Made by a program: the position numbers and the translations under genes
DNA from: a phage
NCBI GenBank assembly: GCA_023732985.1
Contig: GCA_023732985.1_3946.1
Length of the DNA: 64,000 nucleotides
Reading direction: 5' to 3' (one strand)
The notes under the pieces: generated by a model
Told to the model about the DNA's origin: nothing
Databases searched by the model: none
Seen by the model: only the letters and a program-made list of their open reading frames with translations
In this document: positions 42,406 through 49,406 of the stretch, in pieces
How the letters are laid out: each line of letters starts with the position of its first letter
Numbering within the stretch: the first letter of the stretch is position 1

Positions 42406-43821
42406 ATGAGCGAATTATTTAAACATGCGCACCTTCATGCAGGTCGAACTGAAAATGGTGCTGTAAACCATACTTCATCAATGTCTGCTCTTGTAGACTT
42501 TTACAAAGCTGCTGGTTCAAGCCGTAGCAACGTAGAAATCTTACCAGACCTGTTCTACAAAGCTTTGCGTGAGGATGTTGATGTTGCAGTTCGTATTTTA
42601 CTGCATATGCGAGATGTACGAGAAGGCATGGGTGAGCGTAAAGCCTTCAGAACTGTTTTGCTTCAAGCGATTGAAGACAAAGTTTTAGAGTCTACGCAGG
42701 TTCTTCGCATTATGGATAAGATTGCAGAACTTGGTCGTTTTGATGACTTCAAAATCTTCGTGGGTACTCGTTTCGAGACAGATGCCTTCAAGCATTTAGA
42801 AGCAGCATTACTAGACCCTGCAACAGCAGGTTTGGCAGCTAAGTGGTTACCACGAGTCAAACCACGTCATAAGCAGTTTGTAAAACGTTTCTGCAAGTTT
42901 GCCAACTTGAGTGAGAAAGAGTACCGCACACTATTGTCTGCACTATCTGATACAGTTGAGCAAAAAATCTCTGCTAATGAGTTTGGTAAGATTGACTACA
43001 GTAAGATTCCTTCACTTGCTGCTGCACGTTACCAAAAACTGTTTAACCGTAAAGATGGAGAGCGTTACAAAGCTTACATCGAGTCCTTATCAAAAGGTGA
43101 GACTAAGATTAACGCTGGTGCTGTTTACCCATACGATGTGATTAAATCTGTCAAGTGTGGTAATGCAGATGTTGCTAATGAGCAGTGGAAAGCACTACCA
43201 AACTGGATGGCAGAAGGTGAAAACATCTTGTGTATGTCTGATGTATCAAGTTCAATGTCTTGGGTGAATTTTGGCTCCATTACTGCTCTGGATATTGGCG
43301 TATCACTTGCCTTGTATGTAGCAGAACGCAATACAGGTTGCTTTAAGAATGAGTTGATGGTTTATTCGACAAACCCTCACTTCATCGAACTGAGTGGTGA
43401 TTTACGAAACCGTCATCGTCAGGTGATGCGACACGTTGAATATGGCTCAACTAACTTACAAGCAGCTTTTGACCGCATTCTTGAAACAGGTAAAAGAAAC
43501 AACTTGACTCATAAAGATATGCCAAGTAAGCTTATCATCTTCTCCGATATGGAGTTCAATCAGGTTGATGGAGCTAACGGTCGTACAAACTTTGAAGCAA
43601 TTCAGAGTAAGTACAAAAAAGCTGGATATGAGATGCCACAACTGGTATTCTGGTACTTAGCAAACCGTAATGGTACTTGCGAAGTATCTGTTAAGGATAA
43701 CGGTGTAGCAATGGTATCAGGGTTCTCTCCAGCCACTTTAAAAGCTCTGCTTGGTGGTGAGAAGTTTGACCCAATCAGTGTAATGCTCAAAGCAGTAATG
43801 ATTGACCGTTATATCTGGTAA
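42406..43821 (+). CDS. vWA-domain protein with MIDAS motif (possible Ro60-like RNA-binding protein)
   Basis: helical N-terminal ~280 aa then vWA region with DVSSSMS (DxSxS); Ro60-like assignment is inference. Confidence 0.6.
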   Translation: MSELFKHAHLHAGRTENGAVNHTSSMSALVDFYKAAGSSRSNVEILPDLFYKALREDVDVAVRILLHMRDVREGMGERKAFRTVLLQAIEDKVLESTQVLRIMDKIAELGRFDDFKIFVGTRFETDAFKHLEAALLDPATAGLAAKWLPRVKPRHKQFVKRFCKFANLSEKEYRTLLSALSDTVEQKISANEFGKIDYSKIPSLAAARYQKLFNRKDGERYKAYIESLSKGETKINAGAVYPYDVIKSVKCGNADVANEQWKALPNWMAEGENILCMSDVSSSMSWVNFGSITALDIGVSLALYVAERNTGCFKNELMVYSTNPHFIELSGDLRNRHRQVMRHVEYGSTNLQAAFDRILETGKRNNLTHKDMPSKLIIFSDMEFNQVDGANGRTNFEAIQSKYKKAGYEMPQLVFWYLANRNGTCEVSVKDNGVAMVSGFSPATLKALLGGEKFDPISVMLKAVMIDRYIW

Positions 43822-43839: not shown

Positions 43840-43868
43840 TTGACAATGTGTTTAATACCCTTTAATAT
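43840..43868 (+). promoter_or_regulatory. sigma70-like promoter upstream of the tRNA cluster
   Basis: TTGACA, 17 bp spacer, TAATAT. Confidence 0.5.
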
Positions 43869-43986
43869 GTTCTACATAGAAACGAAATGAGAGCTTTTCT
43901 AAGATACTGAAAAATATTTTAAAAAAGTTCTTGACAACCACTAAAAAATAATGTTAAAGTGGTTACATAGAGTTTGAAAAGTTTAT

Positions 43987-44060
43987 CTCTGTTTAGCTCA
44001 GCTTGGTAGAGCGTTCCGTTTGGGGCGGTAAGGCCGGAGGTTCAAGTCCTCCAACAGAGA
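43987..44060 (+). tRNA. tRNA-Pro (anticodon TGG)
   Basis: hand-folded cloverleaf; acceptor CTCTGTT/AACAGAG; anticodon loop TTTGGGG; CCA encoded. Confidence 0.6.
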
Positions 44061-44070
44061 CCAAATTAAT

Positions 44071-44145
44071 GTTCCAGTGGACAAAATGGTAAAGTCACCA
44101 CTCTTTCAAAGTGGATATTTGAGGGTTCAAATCCCTTCTGGAACG
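44071..44145 (+). tRNA. tRNA-Glu (anticodon TTC)
   Basis: acceptor GTTCCAG/CTGGAAC; anticodon stem CCACT/AGTGG, loop CTTTCAA. Confidence 0.7.
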
Positions 44146-44155
44146 CCAGTTTTGA

Positions 44156-44226
44156 CAGAAGACCAATTACAGCAAACTTAATCTTATTCATCTGAAGGTA
44201 AATCGGACAAAGAAGAGATTTGGTCT
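44156..44226 (+). ncRNA. tRNA-spacer hairpin element, copy 1
   Basis: CAGAAGACCAATTACAGCAAACTT ... TTGGTCTGG; closing stem AGACCAA/TTGGTCT. Confidence 0.4.
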
Positions 44227-44239
44227 GGTCATTAAGAAT

Positions 44240-44313
44240 TGCGGGTATAGAGAAAGGGCGTCTCACATGTCTCATTAGCATGGTATCGGCAGGTTCGACT
44301 CCTGCACCCGCCT
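44240..44313 (+). tRNA. tRNA-Met (anticodon CAT)
   Basis: T-arm GCAGG-TTCGACT-CCTGC; anticodon stem CATGT/GCATG, loop CTCATTA. Confidence 0.6.
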
Positions 44314-44329
44314 CCAAATTTACAGAAGA

Positions 44330-44384
44330 CCGTTTACAGCAATACTTATTAAATTTTTAGCGGAAAAATTGAAAGATACGGTCT
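44330..44384 (+). ncRNA. tRNA-spacer hairpin element, copy 2
   Basis: closing stem AGACCGT/ACGGTCT with conserved TTACAGCAA. Confidence 0.4.
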
Positions 44385-44399
44385 GGTAATACTAAACAT

Positions 44400-44472
44400 G
44401 GTTAGGAAGCACATAAGGTATGTGCGGTCGCCTGTTAAGCGAATGGCACAGGGTTCGAATCCCTGACTAACC
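44400..44472 (+). tRNA. tRNA-Asn (anticodon GTT)
   Basis: T-arm CAGGG-TTCGAAT-CCCTG; anticodon loop CTGTTAA. Confidence 0.6.
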
Positions 44473-44485
44473 GCCAAATTAAATG

Positions 44486-44569
44486 TGTCGTTATCCCGTA
44501 GATGGTAGCGGTGGGGACTGTAAATCCCTTGTCATTGAGACTCGGTAGGTTCGACTCCTACACGGCACA
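44486..44569 (+). tRNA. tRNA-Tyr (anticodon GTA), long variable arm
   Basis: 84 nt; acceptor GTGTCGT/ACGGCAC; anticodon loop CTGTAAA. Confidence 0.6.
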
Positions 44570-44577
44570 CCAATAAA

Positions 44578-44651
44578 GGCTATGTAGTTTAACTGGAGAA
44601 AATACTCCCCTGTCACGGGAGATGATGTGAGTTCAAGTCTCATCGTAGCCG
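44578..44651 (+). tRNA. tRNA-Asp (anticodon GTC)
   Basis: acceptor GGCTATG/CGTAGCC; anticodon stem CTCCC/GGGAG, loop CTGTCAC. Confidence 0.7.
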
Positions 44652-44719
44652 CCAATTTTGAGAGGGCTATTTAGCTCCTCCCTTAAAGAGTTCTTACGAG
44701 TATTCTTTAAAGGAGCAGA

Positions 44720-44787
44720 AGACCAAATACAGCAAGAATGTATGAAATTTCAAGCCAATTTAATTTTGAAAATTTAAAACTTGGTCT
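44720..44787 (+). ncRNA. tRNA-spacer hairpin element, copy 3
   Basis: closing stem AGACCAA/TTGGTCT with conserved ATACAGCAAG. Confidence 0.4.
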
Positions 44788-44806
44788 GGCTCAACAAATT
44801 TACAGA

Positions 44807-44932
44807 AGACCGTTTACAGCAAAACTTAAACAATCTATTTCTCCGGTAAAGAAAAGGCGAAGGTTCGATTCCTTCACTCGGCAGATGTCGAGTTGGTGTA
44901 ATGGTAGCACTTAAGATGATAAACAACGGTCT
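44807..44932 (+). ncRNA. tRNA-spacer hairpin element, copy 4, carrying a permuted tRNA-like module (candidate Y RNA-like tRNA mimic)
   Basis: closing stem AGACCGTT/AACGGTCT; inside, T-arm GAAGG-TTCGATT-CCTTC, then ACTCGGC, AGAT loop, GTCGAGT (7 bp acceptor-like helix), then D-arm-like GTGTAATGGTAGCAC. Confidence 0.4.
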
Positions 44933-44940
44933 GGTAATTA

Positions 44941-45072
44941 TCTTTGTAGATAAGTTATTAAGCTTACCTGTGAGTATGCGACCACAAAGGGTGAAGGGTA
45001 AATTCTAGATTTAAACCTAAAAGGCACATCGCTACAGACCTTAAGCAAGTCTGGGTAGCTTATCTACAAAGA
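44941..45072 (+). ncRNA. structured element closed by a 14 bp perfect inverted repeat
   Basis: TCTTTGTAGATAAG ... CTTATCTACAAAGA enclosing about 105 nt. Confidence 0.35.
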
Positions 45073-45080
45073 TAATTTAA

Positions 45081-45154
45081 TGGAAGTGTAGCAGAATGGT
45101 GATGCGGCAGACTTTTAATCTGACAGGCGATGGGTTCGAATCCCTCCACTTCTA
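45081..45154 (+). tRNA. tRNA-Lys (anticodon TTT)
   Basis: acceptor GGAAGTG/CACTTCT; anticodon loop CTTTTAA; paralog of the tRNA at 46672. Confidence 0.6.
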
Positions 45155-45161
45155 CCAATAT

Positions 45162-45234
45162 GGTTCAGTCGCAGATAAGGTAATGCAAGGGTCTCATAAG
45201 CCCTATGAATGTGGGTTCGATTCCCATCTGAACC
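45162..45234 (+). tRNA. tRNA with CAT anticodon (Met, fMet or Ile2)
   Basis: acceptor GGTTCAG/CTGAACC; anticodon stem AGGGT/GCCCT, loop CTCATAA. Confidence 0.65.
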
Positions 45235-45240
45235 TCCAAT

Positions 45241-45312
45241 TGTGGGTTAGCATAAATGGTAATGCAAACGGCTGATAACCGTTAGAAGAGGGTTCGATAC
45301 CCTCACCTACAA
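45241..45312 (+). tRNA. tRNA-Ile (anticodon GAT)
   Basis: acceptor TGTGGGT/ACCTACA; anticodon stem AACGG/CCGTT, loop CTGATAA. Confidence 0.65.
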
Positions 45313-45330
45313 CCAATTTCAATAAAGTTG

Positions 45331-45359
45331 TTGACATTGAGATGTGACTACTTTATAGT
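45331..45359 (+). promoter_or_regulatory. sigma70-like promoter
   Basis: TTGACA, 17 bp spacer, TATAGT. Confidence 0.5.
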
Positions 45360-45368
45360 AACCTTAGT

Positions 45369-45427
45369 TTTCGTTGCGTAGCGTCTATTTTGCAAATTTA
45401 AAATAAATGCAAACGACAATGTTTTTC
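45369..45427 (+). ncRNA. candidate small RNA (promoter to T-tract)
   Basis: about 60 nt between the promoter and an imperfect hairpin ending TGTTTTT; no ORF. Confidence 0.3.
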
Positions 45428-45563
45428 TGGCAGTAGCTTGATAGGCTAAACACCAGTGAGGTCTTCCAATCCCTCATCAAAGAATTTGGCGTACTCGCCC
45501 ACGGTATGATTAATAAGGTGGGCATCTTTAAGGGCTTTCTAAGAGAGTCTTTAAAGATAATTA

Positions 45564-45642
45564 CGGGGCGTATCTCAGCGGTCTTCTAAACCGCCGTTAA
45601 CCGAGTAAGTGGAGTATGCGGGTTCGAGTCCTGCCGCCTCGA
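45564..45642 (+). tRNA. tRNA-like gene, non-canonical fold, isotype unresolved
   Basis: 7 bp acceptor CGGGGCG/CGCCTCG and T-arm GCGGG-TTCGAGT-CCTGC, but D and anticodon arms could not be placed by hand. Confidence 0.35.
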
Positions 45643-45659
45643 CCAATTTTGGAGAAATC

Positions 45660-46007
45660 ATGAAAACTTGTATTAGGTGCAAACTTAGCAAGGATGAAAA
45701 TGATTTCTACATGAAAGATGGTAGGAGAACTCATTCATACTGTAAAAAGTGTGTTAATGAGCAAACCATAGAAAGACAAAGAGCACTTAAACTCTTAGCT
45801 ATTGAGTACAAAGGTGGGGTTTGTCATGATTGTGGTAAGAAGTATCATCCAGCAGTGTATGACTTCCATCATTTGAATCCTTCAGATAAAGATTTTAACA
45901 TTGGTCATAGGAAAAGCCTTAAGTTCTCTCAAGAACTAAAAGATGAACTTGACAAATGTGTTTTGCTATGTTCAAATTGCCATAGGGTAAGACATGCAAA
46001 ATATTAG
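45660..46007 (+). CDS. HNH homing endonuclease
   Basis: ATG at 45660 (track start overlaps the tRNA-like gene); CxxC pairs plus DFHHLNP...LLCSNCHRVRH. Confidence 0.65.
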   Translation: MKTCIRCKLSKDENDFYMKDGRRTHSYCKKCVNEQTIERQRALKLLAIEYKGGVCHDCGKKYHPAVYDFHHLNPSDKDFNIGHRKSLKFSQELKDELDKCVLLCSNCHRVRHAKY

Positions 46008-46144
46008 TTAGCAGATTACTTAGACGGCCTTAGCGGGTCTTCCTGTAGGGAGGTGGTCTGTATCTCATGTTTTCCAGAACATGTAAATAATCTGAGAAGG
46101 AGCTTGACAGTGTTGAGATAATACGGTAAGCTTCGAATTATAGT

Positions 46145-46224
46145 ATGGGACGATGTTAAGACTCTAAGGCATGAGCAACGGCTTCCAACACCGTTTCAAA
46201 GGGGTTCAACTCCTCCGTCCCATG
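46145..46224 (+). tRNA. tRNA-like gene, non-canonical fold (possible CCA anticodon, Trp)
   Basis: 7 bp acceptor ATGGGAC/GTCCCAT and T-loop TTCAACT; D region about 6 nt too long; candidate anticodon loop TTCCAAC. Confidence 0.35.
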
Positions 46225-46240
46225 CCAAAGTCTTATTAGG

Positions 46241-46328
46241 GGTAGGTAGCGGCTAATGGTAGCCAAACTGTCTTGAAAACAGTTGCCACTGTAGAGATAC
46301 GGTGAGGGTTCGACTCCTTTACTTACCG
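46241..46328 (+). tRNA. tRNA-Ser (anticodon TGA), long variable arm
   Basis: 88 nt; acceptor GGTAGGT/ACTTACC; anticodon stem ACTGT/ACAGT, loop CTTGAAA. Confidence 0.6.
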
Positions 46329-46586
46329 CCTAATAAGATTTTAAAGCCAAGCTTCATTCGGATGTTGCTTTGGTATCCCTCGTGTATTGTCGTACACACT
46401 GATAAAACACCTAGTAGGTGTCACGGAGAAGAGATAATATCAAGCTCTCCAAAGGTTCTAGTCACCGGATTAAACAAGACTATGCAAAGACCTTTTTAGG
46501 TCTTTTTAGAGGGCTTCTAAGGTTATTACGGCTTGTTGTGGAACCTTGTTGCTTAGGTTCTTAGAAGTTCTCTAAAAAGATTTAAT

Positions 46587-46661
46587 GGGAGATTGACGGT
46601 AATTGGTAAACCTATCTCGCTTAGAACGAGATGTTTGAGGGTTCGAATCCCTTGTCTCCTA
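46587..46661 (+). tRNA. tRNA with TAG anticodon (Leu-type) but short variable arm
   Basis: anticodon stem ATCTCG/CGAGAT (6 bp), loop CTTAGAA; T-arm GAGGG-TTCGAAT-CCCTT; variable region 5 nt. Confidence 0.5.
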
Positions 46662-46671
46662 CCAAATTAAT

Positions 46672-46745
46672 GCAGGTGTAGCAAAATGGTTATGCGGCTG
46701 ACTCTTAATCAGTAAGACGATGGGTTCAATTCCCTCCACCTGTAC
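46672..46745 (+). tRNA. tRNA-Lys (anticodon CTT)
   Basis: paralog of the 45081 tRNA with a compensatory anticodon-stem change; loop CTCTTAA. Confidence 0.55.
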
Positions 46746-46752
46746 CAAAAAT

Positions 46753-46825
46753 GGGGTCATAGTTTATATGGTTAAAATTCGAGTTTTGCAAACTTGGGAA
46801 CTGAGTTCAATTCTCAGTGACTCCA
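46753..46825 (+). tRNA. tRNA-Ala (anticodon TGC)
   Basis: G3:U70 pair in acceptor GGGGTCA/TGACTCC; anticodon loop TTTGCAA. Confidence 0.6.
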
Positions 46826-46834
46826 CCAATTAGT

Positions 46835-46906
46835 GCATCCATAGTTTAAACGGGAAAATTACAGTCTTCCAAACTGAGGTTGAGGGTTCGATTCCCTCTG
46901 GATGCT
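46835..46906 (+). tRNA. tRNA-Gly (anticodon TCC)
   Basis: acceptor GCATCCA/TGGATGC; anticodon loop CTTCCAA. Confidence 0.65.
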
Positions 46907-46916
46907 CCAAATTAAT

Positions 46917-46989
46917 GCTCCTATCGTATAATTGGCTATTACGGTTGCCTTGTAAGCAACTTATCAGGGTTCGAATCCTTGTGGGAGCA
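46917..46989 (+). tRNA. tRNA-Thr (anticodon TGT)
   Basis: anticodon stem GTTGC/GCAAC, loop CTTGTAA; T-arm CAGGG-TTCGAAT-CCTTG. Confidence 0.65.
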
Positions 46990-47087
46990 CCAATTCAGAG
47001 GTCAAGTGAAAGACCGCTGGTGTCAACTGAAGACCGTAACAAATTCCACGGAGTTGAGTTAGCGGCACAACTTCAGACCTCTTTCAC

Positions 47088-47159
47088 ACTCGCTTAGTTT
47101 ATATGGTAAAACATCACCCTTACAAGATGAAGAAAAAGGTTCAAGTCCTTTAGTGAGTA
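47088..47159 (+). tRNA. tRNA-Val (anticodon TAC)
   Basis: D-stem GTTT/AAAC; anticodon loop CTTACAA; T-arm AAAGG-TTCAAGT-CCTTT. Confidence 0.55.
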
Positions 47160-47163
47160 CCAT

Positions 47164-47239
47164 GTTCCAGTATCCCAATTGGCAGAGGATGCAAGCTCAA
47201 ACCTTGTATTAGTGACGGTTCGAATCCGTCTTGGAACAC
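47164..47239 (+). tRNA. tRNA with CAA anticodon (Leu-type) but short variable arm
   Basis: anticodon stem TGCAAG/CTTGTA, loop CTCAAAC; T-arm GACGG-TTCGAAT-CCGTC. Confidence 0.5.
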
Positions 47240-47355
47240 CAATTTTAGGAGAACACTATGAGCAATAAGTCAATTGCAAAAAAGTTTAGAGCGTCATACC
47301 TAAACAGACGTAAAAACAAAGTTTGTGAAAAACTGTATGGTGTTCTCGTAGGTAA

Positions 47356-47428
47356 GCAGGATTAGTTCAAATGGATAGAGCAACAGTCTACGAAGCTGTT
47401 AATAGGGGTTCGAATCCCTTATCCTGCA
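47356..47428 (+). tRNA. tRNA-Arg (anticodon ACG)
   Basis: perfect acceptor GCAGGAT/ATCCTGC; anticodon loop CTACGAA. Confidence 0.65.
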
Positions 47429-47450
47429 CCAATTTAAAGAGGCTATTTAG

Positions 47451-48008
47451 ATGAGATATTTGAAGTATGCTTCATGGATTTTCTTAGCTTTGTTAGAGCC
47501 ATTTGCAGCAATCTTAGCAGTTATCTTAGCACCTTTTGTAGTTCCATTCTACAGTGAGAAGAAAGGACACTTACCTTTCGGGTTCAGATGGATGGAGACA
47601 TATGACAACCCAATTGATGGTGATGAAGGTCACGTTAAAAGATGGGCTAATATTAGATGGATTGGTAAACTAGGTGTCTACATGCAAAGAGTCGGATGGC
47701 TCTGGAGAAACAAAGCTTATAACTTCTCTTACCATGTATTAGGAAGAGATGTAAGAGATGTTACTAAGTGGAAAGGTAATATCAACGTAAGTTCTAACCC
47801 TGAAGATAATCAGACTGGTTATCTCCTAATGTGGAACAGTAATGCTTGGGGATTATTCGCTTTTATCCCATCAATTAAAGTCTTCGGTAAACAGTTTTAC
47901 TGGAGAATTTATGTTGGATGGAAACTTAAAAGTGTTGTCCCAGAAGAAAGAGCATTCTCAAGGGAAAGAGTTATGTTGGCATTCTTTATTCATCCACTGA
48001 GAAAGTAA
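47451..48008 (+). CDS. hypothetical membrane protein inside the tRNA cluster
   Basis: AAGAGG RBS; N-terminal hydrophobic segment. Confidence 0.45.
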   Translation: MRYLKYASWIFLALLEPFAAILAVILAPFVVPFYSEKKGHLPFGFRWMETYDNPIDGDEGHVKRWANIRWIGKLGVYMQRVGWLWRNKAYNFSYHVLGRDVRDVTKWKGNINVSSNPEDNQTGYLLMWNSNAWGLFAFIPSIKVFGKQFYWRIYVGWKLKSVVPEERAFSRERVMLAFFIHPLRK

Positions 48009-48016
48009 AGATTTAA

Positions 48017-48090
48017 AGGGGATTAGTTTACAAGGTTAAAACCTAGGTCTTTGAAATCGAAGAAGTTGGTTCAATTCCAACATCCCCCGC
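48017..48090 (+). tRNA. tRNA-Gln (anticodon TTG)
   Basis: T-arm GTTGG-TTCAATT-CCAAC; anticodon loop CTTTGAA; stem has one mismatch. Confidence 0.5.
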
Positions 48091-48094
48091 CAAT

Positions 48095-48169
48095 GCTCCA
48101 TTACTCCAATTGGCAGAGAGGCCAGACTTAAAATCTGTGTTATGTATCGGTTCGAATCCGATATGGAGT
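48095..48169 (+). tRNA. tRNA with TAA anticodon (Leu-type) but short variable arm
   Basis: acceptor GCTCCAT/ATGGAGT; T-arm ATCGG-TTCGAAT-CCGAT; anticodon loop CTTAAAA. Confidence 0.45.
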
Positions 48170-48177
48170 ACCAAATT

Positions 48178-48252
48178 TAGCGGTATAGCATAACTGGCAA
48201 TGCAGCAGTCTCTGAAGCTGTCCTATTAAGGTTCAAATCCTTATGCCGCTGC
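48178..48252 (+). tRNA. tRNA-Gln (anticodon CTG)
   Basis: acceptor AGCGGTA/TGCCGCT; anticodon loop CTCTGAA. Confidence 0.55.
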
Positions 48253-48285
48253 CACTTCTAAGGATTCTTACGAGAGTCCTTAAAT

Positions 48286-48358
48286 GTGGCCTTATCATAA
48301 ATGGTAATGACCCATGCTGTGAACATGGTCTATACGGGTTCAAATCCCGTAGGTCACC
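48286..48358 (+). tRNA. tRNA-His (anticodon GTG)
   Basis: anticodon stem CCATG/CATGG, loop CTGTGAA; acceptor GTGGCCT/AGGTCAC. Confidence 0.65.
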
Positions 48359-48367
48359 CCAATTTAT

Positions 48368-48440
48368 AGTCCAAGTAGCTTATATGGTTAAAGCGCGTGT
48401 CTGAAAAACATGAGAAGAGGGTTCAAATCCCACTGGACTA
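48368..48440 (+). tRNA. tRNA-Phe (anticodon GAA)
   Basis: anticodon loop CTGAAAA; T-arm GAGGG-TTCAAAT-CCCAC. Confidence 0.6.
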
Positions 48441-48459
48441 CCAATTTCAAAGGTGCTTA

Positions 48460-49194
48460 ATGAAAGAGATGACAGAACAAGGTAAGGAGATTTTCAATCT
48501 CTTAAAAACCGGTAAAGGGTTTTCTAACCCCCTTATTACTGGTGCAGCAGTTCTCGGTGGAACCGTAGCTGCCTCTACATCACTTGTAAGCTCTATTAGC
48601 TCTGTATCAGACCCTACAGTAAAGGATAAGCTTGTTGCTGCTGGACTTACAACAGTTCTGCTTAACAGCTTTACCACGAGTCTGACAAGCACTACATCAA
48701 CTACCAAAACACTAACAGATTACGGTCAAAAGTCCATTGATGAGTTTTCATCACGTATGCAGGTAGCAAAAGGTTACTCTAATGTTATGGGTGCAGCAGG
48801 TGAACAAGTTGGCTGTACACCATTTAGTGGTATTATGGGTGTTGCTACAGAGTATGGTCAAAAAACTATTGATACGATTAACAGTGTACTAGATAGTGTT
48901 AATGGTGTGTTAAGTGACTTACAAGATGCTATTGACAAAGGTCTTGATACTATTTCTGATTTAGCTGAGCAAGCTGTTAGTAAGATTAATGAAGGTATTT
49001 CAAAAATTACAGCTTATGCAGATGAAGTTGTGCAGATGATTGAAGAAGAAGCTGCTCTTATTGCAGAGTACCTTAAAACGAATATCAATGGGTTCTTAGC
49101 AGGTATCTTACCAGACTGGTTTGATGATGCTTGTAAAACTGGTGTAATTGACACTATTGCAACACCAGAAATGAAGAACGCATTACAGAAATAA
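48460..49194 (+). CDS. hypothetical protein (Ser/Thr-rich)
   Basis: ATG at 48460, in frame with the track ORF whose upstream part overlaps tRNA-Phe. Confidence 0.55.
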   Translation: MKEMTEQGKEIFNLLKTGKGFSNPLITGAAVLGGTVAASTSLVSSISSVSDPTVKDKLVAAGLTTVLLNSFTTSLTSTTSTTKTLTDYGQKSIDEFSSRMQVAKGYSNVMGAAGEQVGCTPFSGIMGVATEYGQKTIDTINSVLDSVNGVLSDLQDAIDKGLDTISDLAEQAVSKINEGISKITAYADEVVQMIEEEAALIAEYLKTNINGFLAGILPDWFDDACKTGVIDTIATPEMKNALQK

Positions 49195-49196
49195 AT

Positions 49197-49286
49197 GGAA
49201 GATTAACCCTAAAAGGTAAGGGAGCAGTTTGCTAAACTGCCAGTAGCTGAGAAATCGGTGTACCAGTTCAAGTCTGGTATCTTCCT
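49197..49286 (+). tRNA. tRNA-Ser (anticodon GCT), long variable arm
   Basis: 90 nt; perfect acceptor GGAAGAT/ATCTTCC; anticodon stem GCAGT/ACTGC, loop TTGCTAA. Confidence 0.6.
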
Positions 49287-49295
49287 CCAATTTGA

Positions 49296-49368
49296 ATCCG
49301 TGACAGAAACGGCTATGTGCCTGTCTGCAAAACAGGTTTATAAGGGTTCGAGTCCCTTCGGATTCTCC
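49296..49368 (+). tRNA. tRNA-Cys (anticodon GCA)
   Basis: perfect acceptor GAATCCG/CGGATTC; anticodon stem CCTGT/ACAGG, loop CTGCAAA. Confidence 0.7.
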
Positions 49369-49406
49369 AAGTTATTTTACTCTCTCTCAATTAAAATAAT
49401 AATAAT

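Follow-up and report, generated by a model that had tools for sequence, protein, structure and literature searches.

Four hairpins that lie between the tRNA genes of a Felix O1-like phage are probably small non-coding RNA genes, and their RNAs would be dedicated partners of a Ro60-fold protein that the same phage encodes at 42406-43821. The best reading of the sequence is that these elements act for a Ro60 paralogue as Y RNAs do for Ro60. We infer binding between the RNAs and the protein because of their genomic association.

A common module in four tRNA spacers

Positions refer to the window, the whole 64 kb stretch of phage DNA that was analysed. The four elements and their defining parts are as follows.

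44153-44231 (core 44160-44227), + strand: element 1, short class, between tRNA-Glu and tRNA-Met; helix AGACCAA/TTGGTCT, UACAGCAA at 44168-44175, 3' G at 44227, outer helix UGAC/GUCA
44320-44389 (core 44327-44385), + strand: element 2, short class, between tRNA-Met and tRNA-Asn; helix AGACCGT/ACGGTCT, UACAGCAA at 44335-44342, outer helix UUAC/GUAA
44713-44792 (core 44720-44788), + strand: element 3, short class; helix AGACCAA/TTGGTCT, UACAGCAA at 44728-44735, outer helix GAGC/GCUC
44800-44937 (core 44807-44933), + strand: element 4, long class; helix AGACCGTT/AACGGTCT, UACAGCAA at 44815-44822, outer helix UUAC/GUAA; carries the tRNA mimic

An earlier sequence-only reading of this DNA had picked out a motif shared by at least four spacers, and the count is exactly four: AGACCNNNTACAGCAA matches the window at 44160, 44327, 44720 and 44807 and nowhere else, always on the + strand, a number that 0 of 100 dinucleotide shuffles reach, and a repeat finder independently recovers the same four copies (family D9). 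The (A/T)ACTT that it described after the motif is present in three of the four copies and is replaced by GAATG in element 3. The 3' partner strands of the closing stems lie where it had placed them (TTGGTCT at 44220-44226 and 44781-44787, ACGGTCT at 44378-44384 and AACGGTCT at 44925-44932), each followed by a G. The common module opens with (A)AG and a terminal helix of 7-8 bp, continues with UACAGCAA, which is single-stranded, and an insert that varies, and ends with the 3' strand of the helix and CUG. The closing helix forms in the folds of all four elements, and an AGA/G internal loop divides it from a second, outer helix of 4 bp, which covaries from one copy to another. With values of -1.0 to -2.2, the thermodynamic z-scores of all four are modest, and the case made here therefore rests on comparative evidence rather than on folding energy. 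Elements 2 and 4 are 97% identical over their first 34 nt including the flank, which indicates that they arose by local duplication.

The Ro60-like gene and putative promoters

The most likely protein partner of the four hairpin RNAs, judged from the sequence, is the product of the gene that precedes the array.

42406-43821, + strand: gene for the Ro60-fold protein, 471 aa, with a HEAT-repeat ring and a vWA domain with MIDAS motif
43840-43868 and 43931-43960, + strand: two sigma-70-like promoter matches, each at 10 of 12 hexamer positions, consensus match only

The protein has the architecture of Ro60/TROVE proteins, a HEAT-repeat ring followed by a C-terminal vWA domain with a MIDAS, and the MIDAS residues DxSxS...T...D are invariant. 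At the sequence level, Pfam assigns only DUF2828 and DUF7788 and gives no significant TROVE match, phmmer against the PDB returns nothing, and a profile search of the PDB reaches Ro60 only at E 0.3. An orthologue with 97% identity, gp130 of phage Bas63, has been shown experimentally to be a counter-defence factor against the Ppl system, and gp130 alone, supplied on a plasmid or in the T7 genome, rescues T7 on Ppl-carrying cells; the phage RNAs would consequently not be required in that setting, unless host RNAs substitute for them. The PhageMaP preprint likened gp130 to Ro60 and offered the guess that "some tRNA genes are possibly Y RNAs", none of which it located.

Both promoter matches precede the first tRNA, and the region 43840-43960 is likely to mark the start of a polycistronic transcript of tRNAs and small RNAs. 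There are no terminator-like sites on the + strand between these matches and the elements, and the individual elements of the window showed no promoters or terminators of their own.

Linkage to the Ro60-like gene across genomes

The association between module and gene was examined in 80 distant IMG/VR viral loci fetched solely through the protein (about 40% identity). In these loci 96 copies of TACAGCAA lie on the strand of the gene and 19 on the opposite one; if the full helix signature is required as well, the numbers are 63 and 0. For composition-matched permuted 8-mers the mean is 0.3 and the highest count 3. With one mismatch allowed, the count becomes 112 on the gene strand against 2, and 60 of the 80 loci are positive. 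The nearest element is less than 500 nt from the gene in 50 of these 60 and less than 100 nt away in 22. The relationship also holds in the reciprocal direction. Searching IMG/VR for AAAGGATNNNTACAGCAA yielded 124 matches; among the 46 with the helix signature the gene was present in 20 of the fetched stretches, always on the same strand, as against 1 among the 78 without it. GTDB genomes provide an independent replication, with 58 elements on the gene strand and 3 on the other. Two to four elements of 44-60 nt are also found on giant-virus contigs (296-319 kb) and on the giant-virus-labelled L119, where they occupy the gene-free gap right after the Ro60-like gene. The same RNA-protein pairing appears to recur in hundreds of phages and in giant viruses. 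Signature elements are absent from 20 of the 80 IMG/VR loci and 45 of 80 GTDB loci, including most Clostridia-type loci (33-35% identity to the query); truncated loci, diverged motifs or true absence may each contribute.

The module adjoins the Ro60-like gene with or without tRNAs, and this bears directly on tRNA-processing signals, one of the options of the sequence-only reading. On that view the hairpins would be punctuation in a tRNA precursor that guides RNase E, RNase III or RNase P. All four window elements do lie in tRNA spacers, and of the 112 elements across loci, 21 have a tRNA end no more than 40 nt away. Against this, 25 of the 60 positive loci have the module beside the gene and no tRNA within about 6 kb, most junctions of the array (gaps of 2-8 nt) carry no such element, and the association is with the Ro60-like gene, so that we regard this explanation as very unlikely.

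Many elements start 25-35 nt past the stop codon, or else are located within 20-60 nt upstream of the gene. Such placement, like the missing individual promoters and terminators in the window, would also suit cis-acting sites on the operon transcript, serving autoregulation of the Ro60-like protein or mRNA stability or processing, rather than free small RNAs. We consider this unlikely, since in this phage two promoter-like sites and two tRNAs separate the gene from the elements, which are interleaved with tRNAs that must be excised. The two to nine copies per locus and the tRNA-mimic inserts are equally hard to square with mRNA control, and the look-alikes of these elements in Dictyostelium, discussed below, are abundant free RNAs.

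Covariation and conservation of the module

The sequence-only reading was correct that the closing stems covary, and the pattern extends far beyond the window: among 39 distinct elements, seven of the eight helix pairs change on both sides, the second pair being G:C in all 39, and when the partner strand is slid the paired fraction drops from 92% to 28-43%. These helix statistics are partly circular, as the elements were selected for having the helix, a circularity that touches neither the strand bias nor the permuted-motif controls. Over 153 distinct elements, 80 of which are no longer than 75 nt, the core CAGCAA is at least 95% conserved within the conserved sequence U-N-CAGCAA, and the consensus termini of the family are A(A)AG...CUG(U), where position -8 is A in 73% and the C is followed by U in 77%.

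The four elements occur in the same order in Moogle, SUSP1, ESh22 and Bas63, with loops that have diverged or been replaced. The orthologue of element 1 in locus L002 keeps the same module around a completely different loop, and in these four phages the element 3 orthologues have UUCAGCAA in place of UACAGCAA. This retention of order despite loop divergence suggests that the module is under purifying selection. Relatives that share the tRNA order of this phage retain the spacers, so that the refuting outcome named in the sequence-only reading, their complete lack in such phages, does not occur, and the order and position of the unit are constant across Felixounavirus, Suspvirus and Mooglevirus. 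Of the three interpretations first offered, small RNAs, tRNA-processing signals and mobile elements, it is the first that accords with a strand-specific, structured unit whose place is kept in three genera while its loops change.

The third, an expansion of miniature mobile elements or selfish repeats within the array, could draw on the presence of four paralogous copies within 800 nt and on the near-identity of the first 34 nt of elements 2 and 4. It is the least probable of the explanations we weighed. The 64 kb window has no further copies, the copies confined to the array are syntenic across genera with a fixed orientation to one gene, apart from the functional helix the copies have no terminal inverted repeats, target-site duplications are absent, and the module is conserved while the loops diverge. 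A MITE-like identity was rejected on the same grounds.

A circularly permuted tRNA mimic in element 4

Minimum-free-energy folds place a tRNA-like module with permuted arms inside element 4.

44825-44915, + strand: circularly permuted tRNA-like module
44825-44828/44912-44915, + strand: anticodon-stem-like helix
44834-44857, + strand: variable-arm hairpin
44859-44875, + strand: T arm, GAAGG-UUCGAUU-CCUUC
44876-44893, + strand: closed 7-bp acceptor stem, ACUCGGC-AGAU-GUCGAGU
44895-44911, + strand: D arm, loop AAUGGUA

The acceptor hairpin covaries in orthologues (CUCGGC/GUCGAG, CCCUUC/GAAGGG, CACG/CGUG), and the identical arm order is found in at least eight other phage lineages. The Rfam tRNA model matches the mimic only in part, over the anticodon and T arms at 44826-44876, with 22 bits against a threshold of 29, and ARAGORN calls no tRNA at 44800-44937. 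With the arm order permuted and the acceptor stem closed in addition, an ordinary tRNA was rejected as an identity for element 4. The arm order agrees with the description of the YrlA crystal structure, and the equivalent element in locus L011, the best-scoring sister, reaches 39.1 bits (E 4e-5) with the Rfam YrlA model, where 69 bits are required. Elements 1-3 lack a tRNA-like domain, as does YrlB. Circularly permuted tRNA genes of Cyanidioschyzon merolae and some archaea resemble the mimic in having the 3' half before the 5' half, a loop-closed acceptor and paired ends; those genes yield functional tRNAs through a splicing endonuclease and a ligase, whereas the mimic has no anticodon loop and sits within a larger RNA.

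Comparison with Y RNAs and Dictyostelium Class I RNAs

Among the closest known systems are the Y RNAs of bacteria and phages, YrlA in particular (RF02553, RF00019), which are bound by Ro60/Rsr. Both these and the elements described here are same-strand neighbours of a gene for a ring-shaped Ro60-fold protein, in this phage a putative Ro60 paralogue, have a terminal stem formed from paired 5' and 3' ends, and are modular, with a protein-binding stem (predicted in the phage) joined to a variable effector module. YrlA contains a permuted tRNA mimic whose acceptor is closed and whose arms run variable arm, T arm, acceptor stem, D arm; one RNA per phage locus often does so too, and several paralogous RNAs per locus are common to Y RNAs and phage elements. 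The Salmonella rsr-yrlBA-rtcBA operon has the same layout of a gene followed by its RNAs. The systems differ in that the phage protein belongs to a separate sequence family (DUF2828/DUF7788), and in that none of the four elements contains the Ro60-binding motif (GGUCCGA in animals, GNCGAAN0-1G in bacteria); they have instead an AG...CUG helix base and the single-stranded UACAGCAA. The Rfam YrlA and Y_RNA models find no match on the window elements at E up to 10. Thermus phage phiLo (Ro60, Yrl1/Yrl2; NAR 2025) encodes a canonical TROVE protein, and its RNAs carry CGAA in an internal bulge and, unlike the elements described here, have neither the UACAGCAA module nor an embedding in a tRNA array.

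In sequence and shape, the phage RNAs bear a striking likeness to Dictyostelium Class I RNAs (RF01414), which are orphans, albeit at sub-threshold scores. Both have a short covarying terminal stem and termini (predicted in the phage) in which the 5' G pairs with the 3' C (AAG...CUG(U) in Class I, AGAAG...CUGG in the window). In Class I UUACAGCAA is single-stranded directly after the 5' strand, as the corresponding segment is in the phage module, and the 11-nt Class I motif CCUUACAGCAA shares 8-9 of 11 nt with (U)UACAGCAA at the same position in all four elements. Both are multi-copy families with a variable, A/U-rich and G-poor interior. Sizes overlap in part, at about 60 nt (42-65) for Class I, 58-69 nt for elements 1-3 and 44-60 nt for the giant-virus elements, with element 4 longer at 127 nt. 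RF01414 is the only Rfam family that matches the short elements, its 8 matches in about 190 kb all falling on elements, with scores below the 41.5-bit gathering threshold: 12.8-20.3 bits in the window (19.7 at 44161-44227 in element 1, 20.3 at 44328-44385 in element 2 and 12.8 over 44808-44933 in element 4) and 26-30.7 in other phages. The phage helix of 7-8 bp comes one nucleotide nearer the motif than the 6-bp Dictyostelium stem. Class I RNAs have been reported absent outside Dictyostelia, and their DUSE promoter about 60 nt upstream and their RRM-protein binder Rnp1A are eukaryote-specific features irrelevant to the phage.

That Rnp1A is the only proven direct binder in Dictyostelium lends some weight to a further explanation, in which the elements are real small RNAs that act through a host factor or by target pairing, independently of a Ro60-like protein merely co-inherited with them as an "RNA module". 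The activity of gp130 against Ppl without them points the same way, and the single-stranded UACAGCAA could equally be a seed or the site of another protein. The tight, strand-specific linkage to one gene, seen across GTDB genomes, giant viruses and phages whose hosts are unrelated, with little else in common, is however the signature expected of an RNA-protein pair, and it parallels the Ro60/Y RNA gene linkage that was used to discover YrlA. We accordingly regard independent action as unlikely, slightly more so than the cis-acting sites considered above.

The sequence-only reading had noted neither the Ro60-fold gene association, nor the permuted tRNA mimic in element 4, nor the resemblance to Dictyostelium Class I RNAs.

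A model for RNA release and function

On the preferred reading of the elements as partners of the Ro60-like protein, the RNAs would share a transcript with the tRNAs, started at the putative promoters at 43840 and 43931, and be released by the nucleases that mature those tRNAs, with RNase P cutting at the 5' end of the next tRNA and endo- and exonucleases acting at the 3' end of the previous one, after which the freed RNAs would be trimmed back to the terminal helix. Co-occurrence and conservation suggest that the invariant module is the protein-binding site. This putative site would comprise the terminal helix with its A/U-G...C-U/A base, the 3' G and the single-stranded U-N-CAGCAA directly after the 5' strand, leaving the variable insert as a probable effector module. 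The YrlA-type tRNA mimic of element 4 could recruit tRNA-binding enzymes or act as a decoy for them. During infection the RNAs could plausibly gate, tether or target the ring protein, in analogy to Ro60/Y RNA particles.

Neighbouring structured RNAs

Two further hairpins in the array, which the sequence-only reading had grouped with the four, are real structures that stand outside the family.

44936-45077, + strand: separate structured RNA, about 145 nt, with a long closing helix; not a member by signature
46997-47085, + strand: separate structured RNA in the tRNA-Thr/tRNA-Val spacer; not a member

The first, originally described as an inverted repeat closing 44941-45072, has 22-nt arms with 95% complementarity, a z-score of -5.3 with 0 of 200 shuffles equally stable, and ten pairs with compensatory changes across Felixounavirus, Suspvirus and Mooglevirus; the motif is missing at the family position. 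Within it, a mini-hairpin ACAGACC-UUAAGCAA-GUCUGG at about 45006-45027 resembles a minimal module. The second, described as a related stem at 46996-47075, lacks both UACAGCAA and the AG...CUG ends. It has a z-score of -2.96 and is near-invariant, with almost no substitutions across the three genera and hence no covariation information. The GAAGACCGUAACAAA that it contains is possibly a relic of the module.

A family of spacer hairpins in a Felix O1-like tRNA array

The part of the window considered here belongs to a Felix O1-like myovirus (Ounavirinae) and comprises its tRNA array; the tRNA segment is 96.6% identical to that of Salmonella phage Felix O1, and a gene upstream of the array is 99.2% identical to its counterpart in coliphage wV8. 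ARAGORN places 25 tRNAs at 43987-49369, all on the plus strand, and two sigma-70-like promoter matches lie ahead of the first. The features central to our analysis are as follows.

42406-43821, plus strand, Ro60-like gene (471 aa), encoding the proposed protein partner of the elements
44160-44227, plus strand, core of spacer hairpin element 1
44327-44385, plus strand, core of element 2
44720-44788, plus strand, core of element 3
44807-44933, plus strand, core of element 4

The sequence-only reading had proposed a 5' motif shared by at least four of the tRNA spacers, together with a complementary 3' strand, and both proposals are borne out. The 64 kb window contains exactly four copies of AGACCNNNTACAGCAA (44160, 44327, 44720 and 44807) and no others, a count that no shuffled sequence equals, and in each copy the complementary 3' strand is present and followed by G. 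A repeat finder returned the identical four copies as family D9. The resulting module consists of (A)AG, a terminal helix of 7-8 bp, a single-stranded motif, a variable insert, the 3' helix strand and CUG. Folding further predicts a second helix outside the closing one, 4 bp long and covarying between copies (UGAC/GUCA, UUAC/GUAA, GAGC/GCUC), with a constant AGA/G internal loop separating the two. The folding z-scores of elements 1-4 are modest (-1.0 to -2.2), too weak for thermodynamic stability to count as support, and that argument was dropped. No Rfam family, whether ribozyme, riboswitch or sRNA, reaches threshold on the elements. Phage Bas63 has the equivalent four spacer elements, none of them annotated. 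In the fetched Bas63 locus (L214, MZ501086; 10749-11023), GenBank lists two small minus-strand 'hypothetical proteins', bas63_0137 and bas63_0138, which overlie element 4 and an adjoining 145-nt hairpin and are probably not genes.

Across 39 distinct elements, both strands change in seven of the eight helix pairs, compensated cells number 107 against 36 in shuffles, and the second helix pair is G:C in every element. Sliding the partner strand by one to three columns lowers pairing from 92% to 28-43%, a percentage that is partly circular because the presence of a helix was a selection criterion. Features not imposed by selection, or imposed only in part, are the invariant G:C, the 3' G, the helix-base A/U, the U:A pair at position -4 (80%) and a G-poor stretch past the motif. 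The motif core is CAGCAA, and the second motif position is variable (A 62%, U 26%). Within the Ounavirinae, element order and module are kept in Mooglevirus, Suspvirus and Felixounavirus while the loops have diverged or been wholly replaced; mobile elements spreading through the array are an explanation that we rate lower than a family of RNAs serving the Ro60-like protein. Members fall into three size classes.

Size classes of the elements
Short hairpins: mostly 50-72 nt, the commonest class
tRNA-mimic carriers: about 90-135 nt
Long forms: 150-280 nt

A permuted tRNA mimic in element 4

One of the four copies, element 4, carries a tRNA mimic of the type found in YrlA, the bacterial Y RNA that partners the Ro60 protein Rsr. 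Folding of the interior, between the strands of the closing helix, gives a permuted order of tRNA arms.

44825-44828 with 44912-44915, plus strand, 4-bp helix in the anticodon-stem position
Second in order, before the T arm, plus strand, variable-arm hairpin
44859-44875, plus strand, canonical T arm, GAAGG-UUCGAUU-CCUUC
44876-44893, plus strand, 7-bp acceptor stem with a closing 4-nt loop
44895-44911, plus strand, D arm whose loop contains GG

The Rfam tRNA model aligns with the first half of element 4 only (22 bits), and ARAGORN calls no tRNA there. Orthologues in other genera retain the T and D arms, and their closed acceptor hairpin shows compensatory change (CUCGGC/GUCGAG, CCCUUC/GAAGGG, CACG/CGUG).

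The adjoining Ro60-like protein

The Ro60-like ORF ends 165 nt upstream of the first tRNA and matches Pfam DUF7788 and DUF2828 as well as PHROG 850, 'RNA-binding protein'. Sequence searches of the PDB with the protein returned no significant match, and literature searches on DUF2828, PF11443 and DUF7788 returned nothing functional. A structural search of viral proteins found the family in Pithovirus, Marseillevirus, CroV, Mimiviridae and phages, with canonical phage TROVE proteins ranked below the DUF2828/DUF7788 family. The protein is 97% identical to Bas63 gp130, which counters the Ppl defence system and whose resemblance to Ro60 was remarked on (PhageMaP preprint). Since gp130 by itself rescues T7 on Ppl cells, the RNAs are dispensable for anti-Ppl activity.

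In some freshwater phages (L086 4279-8555, also L009 and L026), the Ro60-like gene has a T4-type RNA ligase 1 and a metallophosphatase as neighbours on its flanks, with the RNA elements in a 410-nt gap between, forming an RNA-repair-like cassette that recalls rsr-yrlBA-rtcBA. Such a neighbourhood was rejected as a general feature of the gene, as it is confined to two to four lineages.

Genomic coupling of the RNA module to the gene

What the comparisons show is an RNA module that is conserved, covaries and keeps to one strand, and whose place in the genome is coupled to the gene for a Ro60-fold protein. Using only the protein as query, we retrieved 80 IMG/VR loci (identity mostly 39-47%) and then scanned them for the motif; of the TACAGCAA copies, 96 are on the gene's strand and 19 on the opposite one. 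A mini covariance model comprising stem and motif with the insert removed (R1) failed to span real inserts and ranked unrelated hairpins level with true copies; an explicit signature scan, controlled by strand and by permuted motifs, took its place. The strict signature required seven contiguous pairs just upstream of the motif, the second of them G:C, and a G following the 3' strand; it yielded 63 matches on the gene strand and none on the other, against a mean of 0.3 and a maximum of 3 for 60 permuted 8-mers of the same composition. With one motif mismatch tolerated, the figures were 112 and 2, and 60 of the 80 loci were positive.

Of the 60 positive loci, 50 have their nearest element within 500 nt of the gene and 22 within 100 nt; this element often starts about 30 nt past the stop codon. 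Beside a protein-bound RNA, elements so placed might be thought of as cis-regulatory sites on the operon mRNA, an explanation that we rate lower. The fetched flanks of 25 positive loci contain no tRNA; the elements are therefore linked to the gene and not to the tRNAs, and punctuation for tRNA processing likewise ranks below partnership with the Ro60-like protein. A reciprocal IMG/VR scan for AAAGGATNNNTACAGCAA gave 124 matches: a DUF2828-type gene (often short) is present in the fetched stretch for 20 of the 46 with the helix signature, always on the same strand, against 1 of the 78 without it. Small RNAs acting independently of the Ro60-like protein, a further alternative, are also rated lower.

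The coupling extends to other collections and hosts of the gene. GTDB species genomes, an independent collection, hold 58 elements on the gene strand and 3 on the opposite one. An IMG/VR contig labelled as a giant-virus MAG has four elements of 44-48 nt after its DUF2828/DUF7788 gene and also encodes a RING finger protein, RNase HII and DUF2827, and two further contigs (296 and 319 kb), which carry genes typical of giant viruses, hold two or three elements of 44-60 nt in a gene-free gap directly after that gene.

The richest element arrays seen in this analysis occur beside very divergent homologues (23-27% identity) in loci L131 (4900-11600) and L184 (3500-9400), where 8-9 elements occupy about 6 kb and several have tRNA-like inserts; two variants of the motif, AACAGCAA and UGCAGCAA, are present there. 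Loci L056 (7924-7978) and L076 (7928-7982) give near-threshold matches to the cyanobacterial sRNA NsiR1 (37.7-38.6 bits, threshold 39), positioned at the 3' end of the long-class element downstream of the Ro60-like gene or immediately beyond it.

Proposed mechanism and relation to known RNPs

From this arrangement we infer that the RNAs would be co-transcribed with the tRNAs, freed by the nucleases that mature them, and bound through the module by the Ro60-like protein. Their role would be Y-RNA-like, the RNA gating, tethering or targeting the ring protein and the insert providing an effector module. Y RNAs regulate Rsr or direct it to substrates, and the phage RNAs may similarly regulate the Ro60-like protein or steer it to other substrates. 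Ro60/Y RNA pairs are known in bacteria and some phages. The RNA family itself, its coupling to DUF2828/DUF7788 in phages, bacterial genomes and giant viruses, and its likeness to Class I RNA of Dictyostelium were not found in Rfam, GenBank annotations or the searchable literature, no paper of which contains the motif as a word.

Our analysis pins down the RNAs most likely carried by the anti-Ppl counter-defence protein Bas63 gp130, at which the PhageMaP authors only guessed, and with candidate RNAs identified the gp130 mechanism is therefore directly testable. The elements represent a large unannotated family of structured RNAs, with at least 150 distinct members in a few hundred sampled loci, and their proposed partner belongs to a widespread viral protein family labelled so far only as DUF or 'RNA-binding protein'. 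The principle of Ro60 and Y RNA, a ring protein with a modular RNA that is often a tRNA mimic, would extend to a family of Ro60 paralogues that uses another recognition code.

Resemblance to Dictyostelium Class I RNA

An unexpected bridge leads to the Class I RNAs, previously considered unique to social amoebae. Their model, RF01414, is the only Rfam family matching the short elements, with scores of 20.3, 19.7 and 12.8 bits in the window and 26.1-30.7 bits in other phages (threshold 41.5). In about 190 kb searched, its eight matches, all below 41.5 bits, fall on independently located elements in eight of eight cases, with none outside elements at E up to 10. Class I RNAs, reported absent beyond Dictyostelia, are about 60 nt long, with a 6-bp terminal stem of covarying sequence, a variable interior, conserved ends AAG...CUGU in which G pairs with C, and an unpaired 11-nt motif, CCUUACAGCAA, adjoining the 5' strand. 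D. discoideum sequences read GUUGAC-CU-UACAGCAA-...-GUCAAC-UG and the phage consensus A-AG-NNNNN(N)-UACAGCAA-...-(N)NNNNN-CU-G; the phage helix is longer by one or two pairs, whereas its spacing to the motif is shorter by one nucleotide. We class the elements with the Ro60/Y RNA kind but place them in neither RNA family, as they lack the Ro-binding motif, a defining feature of Y RNAs, and score below the model threshold for Class I RNA.

We regard the link between the phage and giant-virus elements and Class I RNAs as a lead. It is plausible, if somewhat short of probable, that all three form one ancient class in which proteins of the Ro60 superfamily's DUF2828/DUF7788 branch bind the module AG-stem, UACAGCAA, stem-CUG. 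Family peptides compared with the partial proteome sequences in the supplement of the Class I paper matched only unrelated vWA proteins, and a search with the giant-virus homologue returned environmental proteins only. If true, this reading would give the Class I RNAs, orphans for 20 years, a protein partner and a Y-RNA-like RNP mechanism, and they would no longer count as an invention of Dictyostelia linked to multicellularity. A third TROVE-type RNP, common to bacterial viruses, giant viruses and eukaryotes, would then join Ro/Y RNA and TEP1/vault RNA.

Other structured RNAs and genes in the array

Two further hairpins, at 44936-45077 and 46997-47085, had been grouped with the family; they are real structured spacers and are without its defining module. 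The first is a 145-nt RNA with arms of 22 nt (z-score -5.3), in which 10 pairs show compensatory change among three genera; the interior differs from genus to genus and contains a mini-hairpin, ACAGACC-UUAAGCAA-GUCUGG, that resembles a minimal module. The second, between tRNA-Thr and tRNA-Val, is nearly invariant in Felixounavirus, Suspvirus and Mooglevirus and has GAAGACCGUAACAAA, similar to the 5' part of the module.

A tRNA overlooked by ARAGORN lies at 45564-45645 (Rfam tRNA model 31.7 bits, threshold 29), bringing the array to at least 26; its anticodon loop CUUCUAA indicates Arg(UCU), and tRNA-Arg is annotated at the equivalent position in Bas63, SUSP1 and Moogle. An HNH endonuclease ORF occupies 45660-46007 within the array, and Felix O1 has three HNH genes of this type placed differently in its array, an arrangement suggestive of array reshuffling by homing endonucleases. 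At 46140-46229 lies a cloverleaf-like RNA (z-score -2.74) made up of an acceptor-type stem of 10 bp, a 5-bp stem with the 9-nt loop CUUCCAACA, a T-arm-like hairpin and 3' UGCCA. It is missing from the tRNA calls of both ARAGORN and Rfam and might be a degenerate tRNA, one whose anticodon loop has expanded, or a further tRNA mimic. The stretch 45258-45441 gives a weak match to permuted tmRNA (32.5 bits, threshold 47; E 9e-4), and two distant phage loci, L064 (9696-10187) and L076 (11715-12132), have genuine tmRNA genes (85-88 bits) at a distance of a few kb from their Ro60-like gene.
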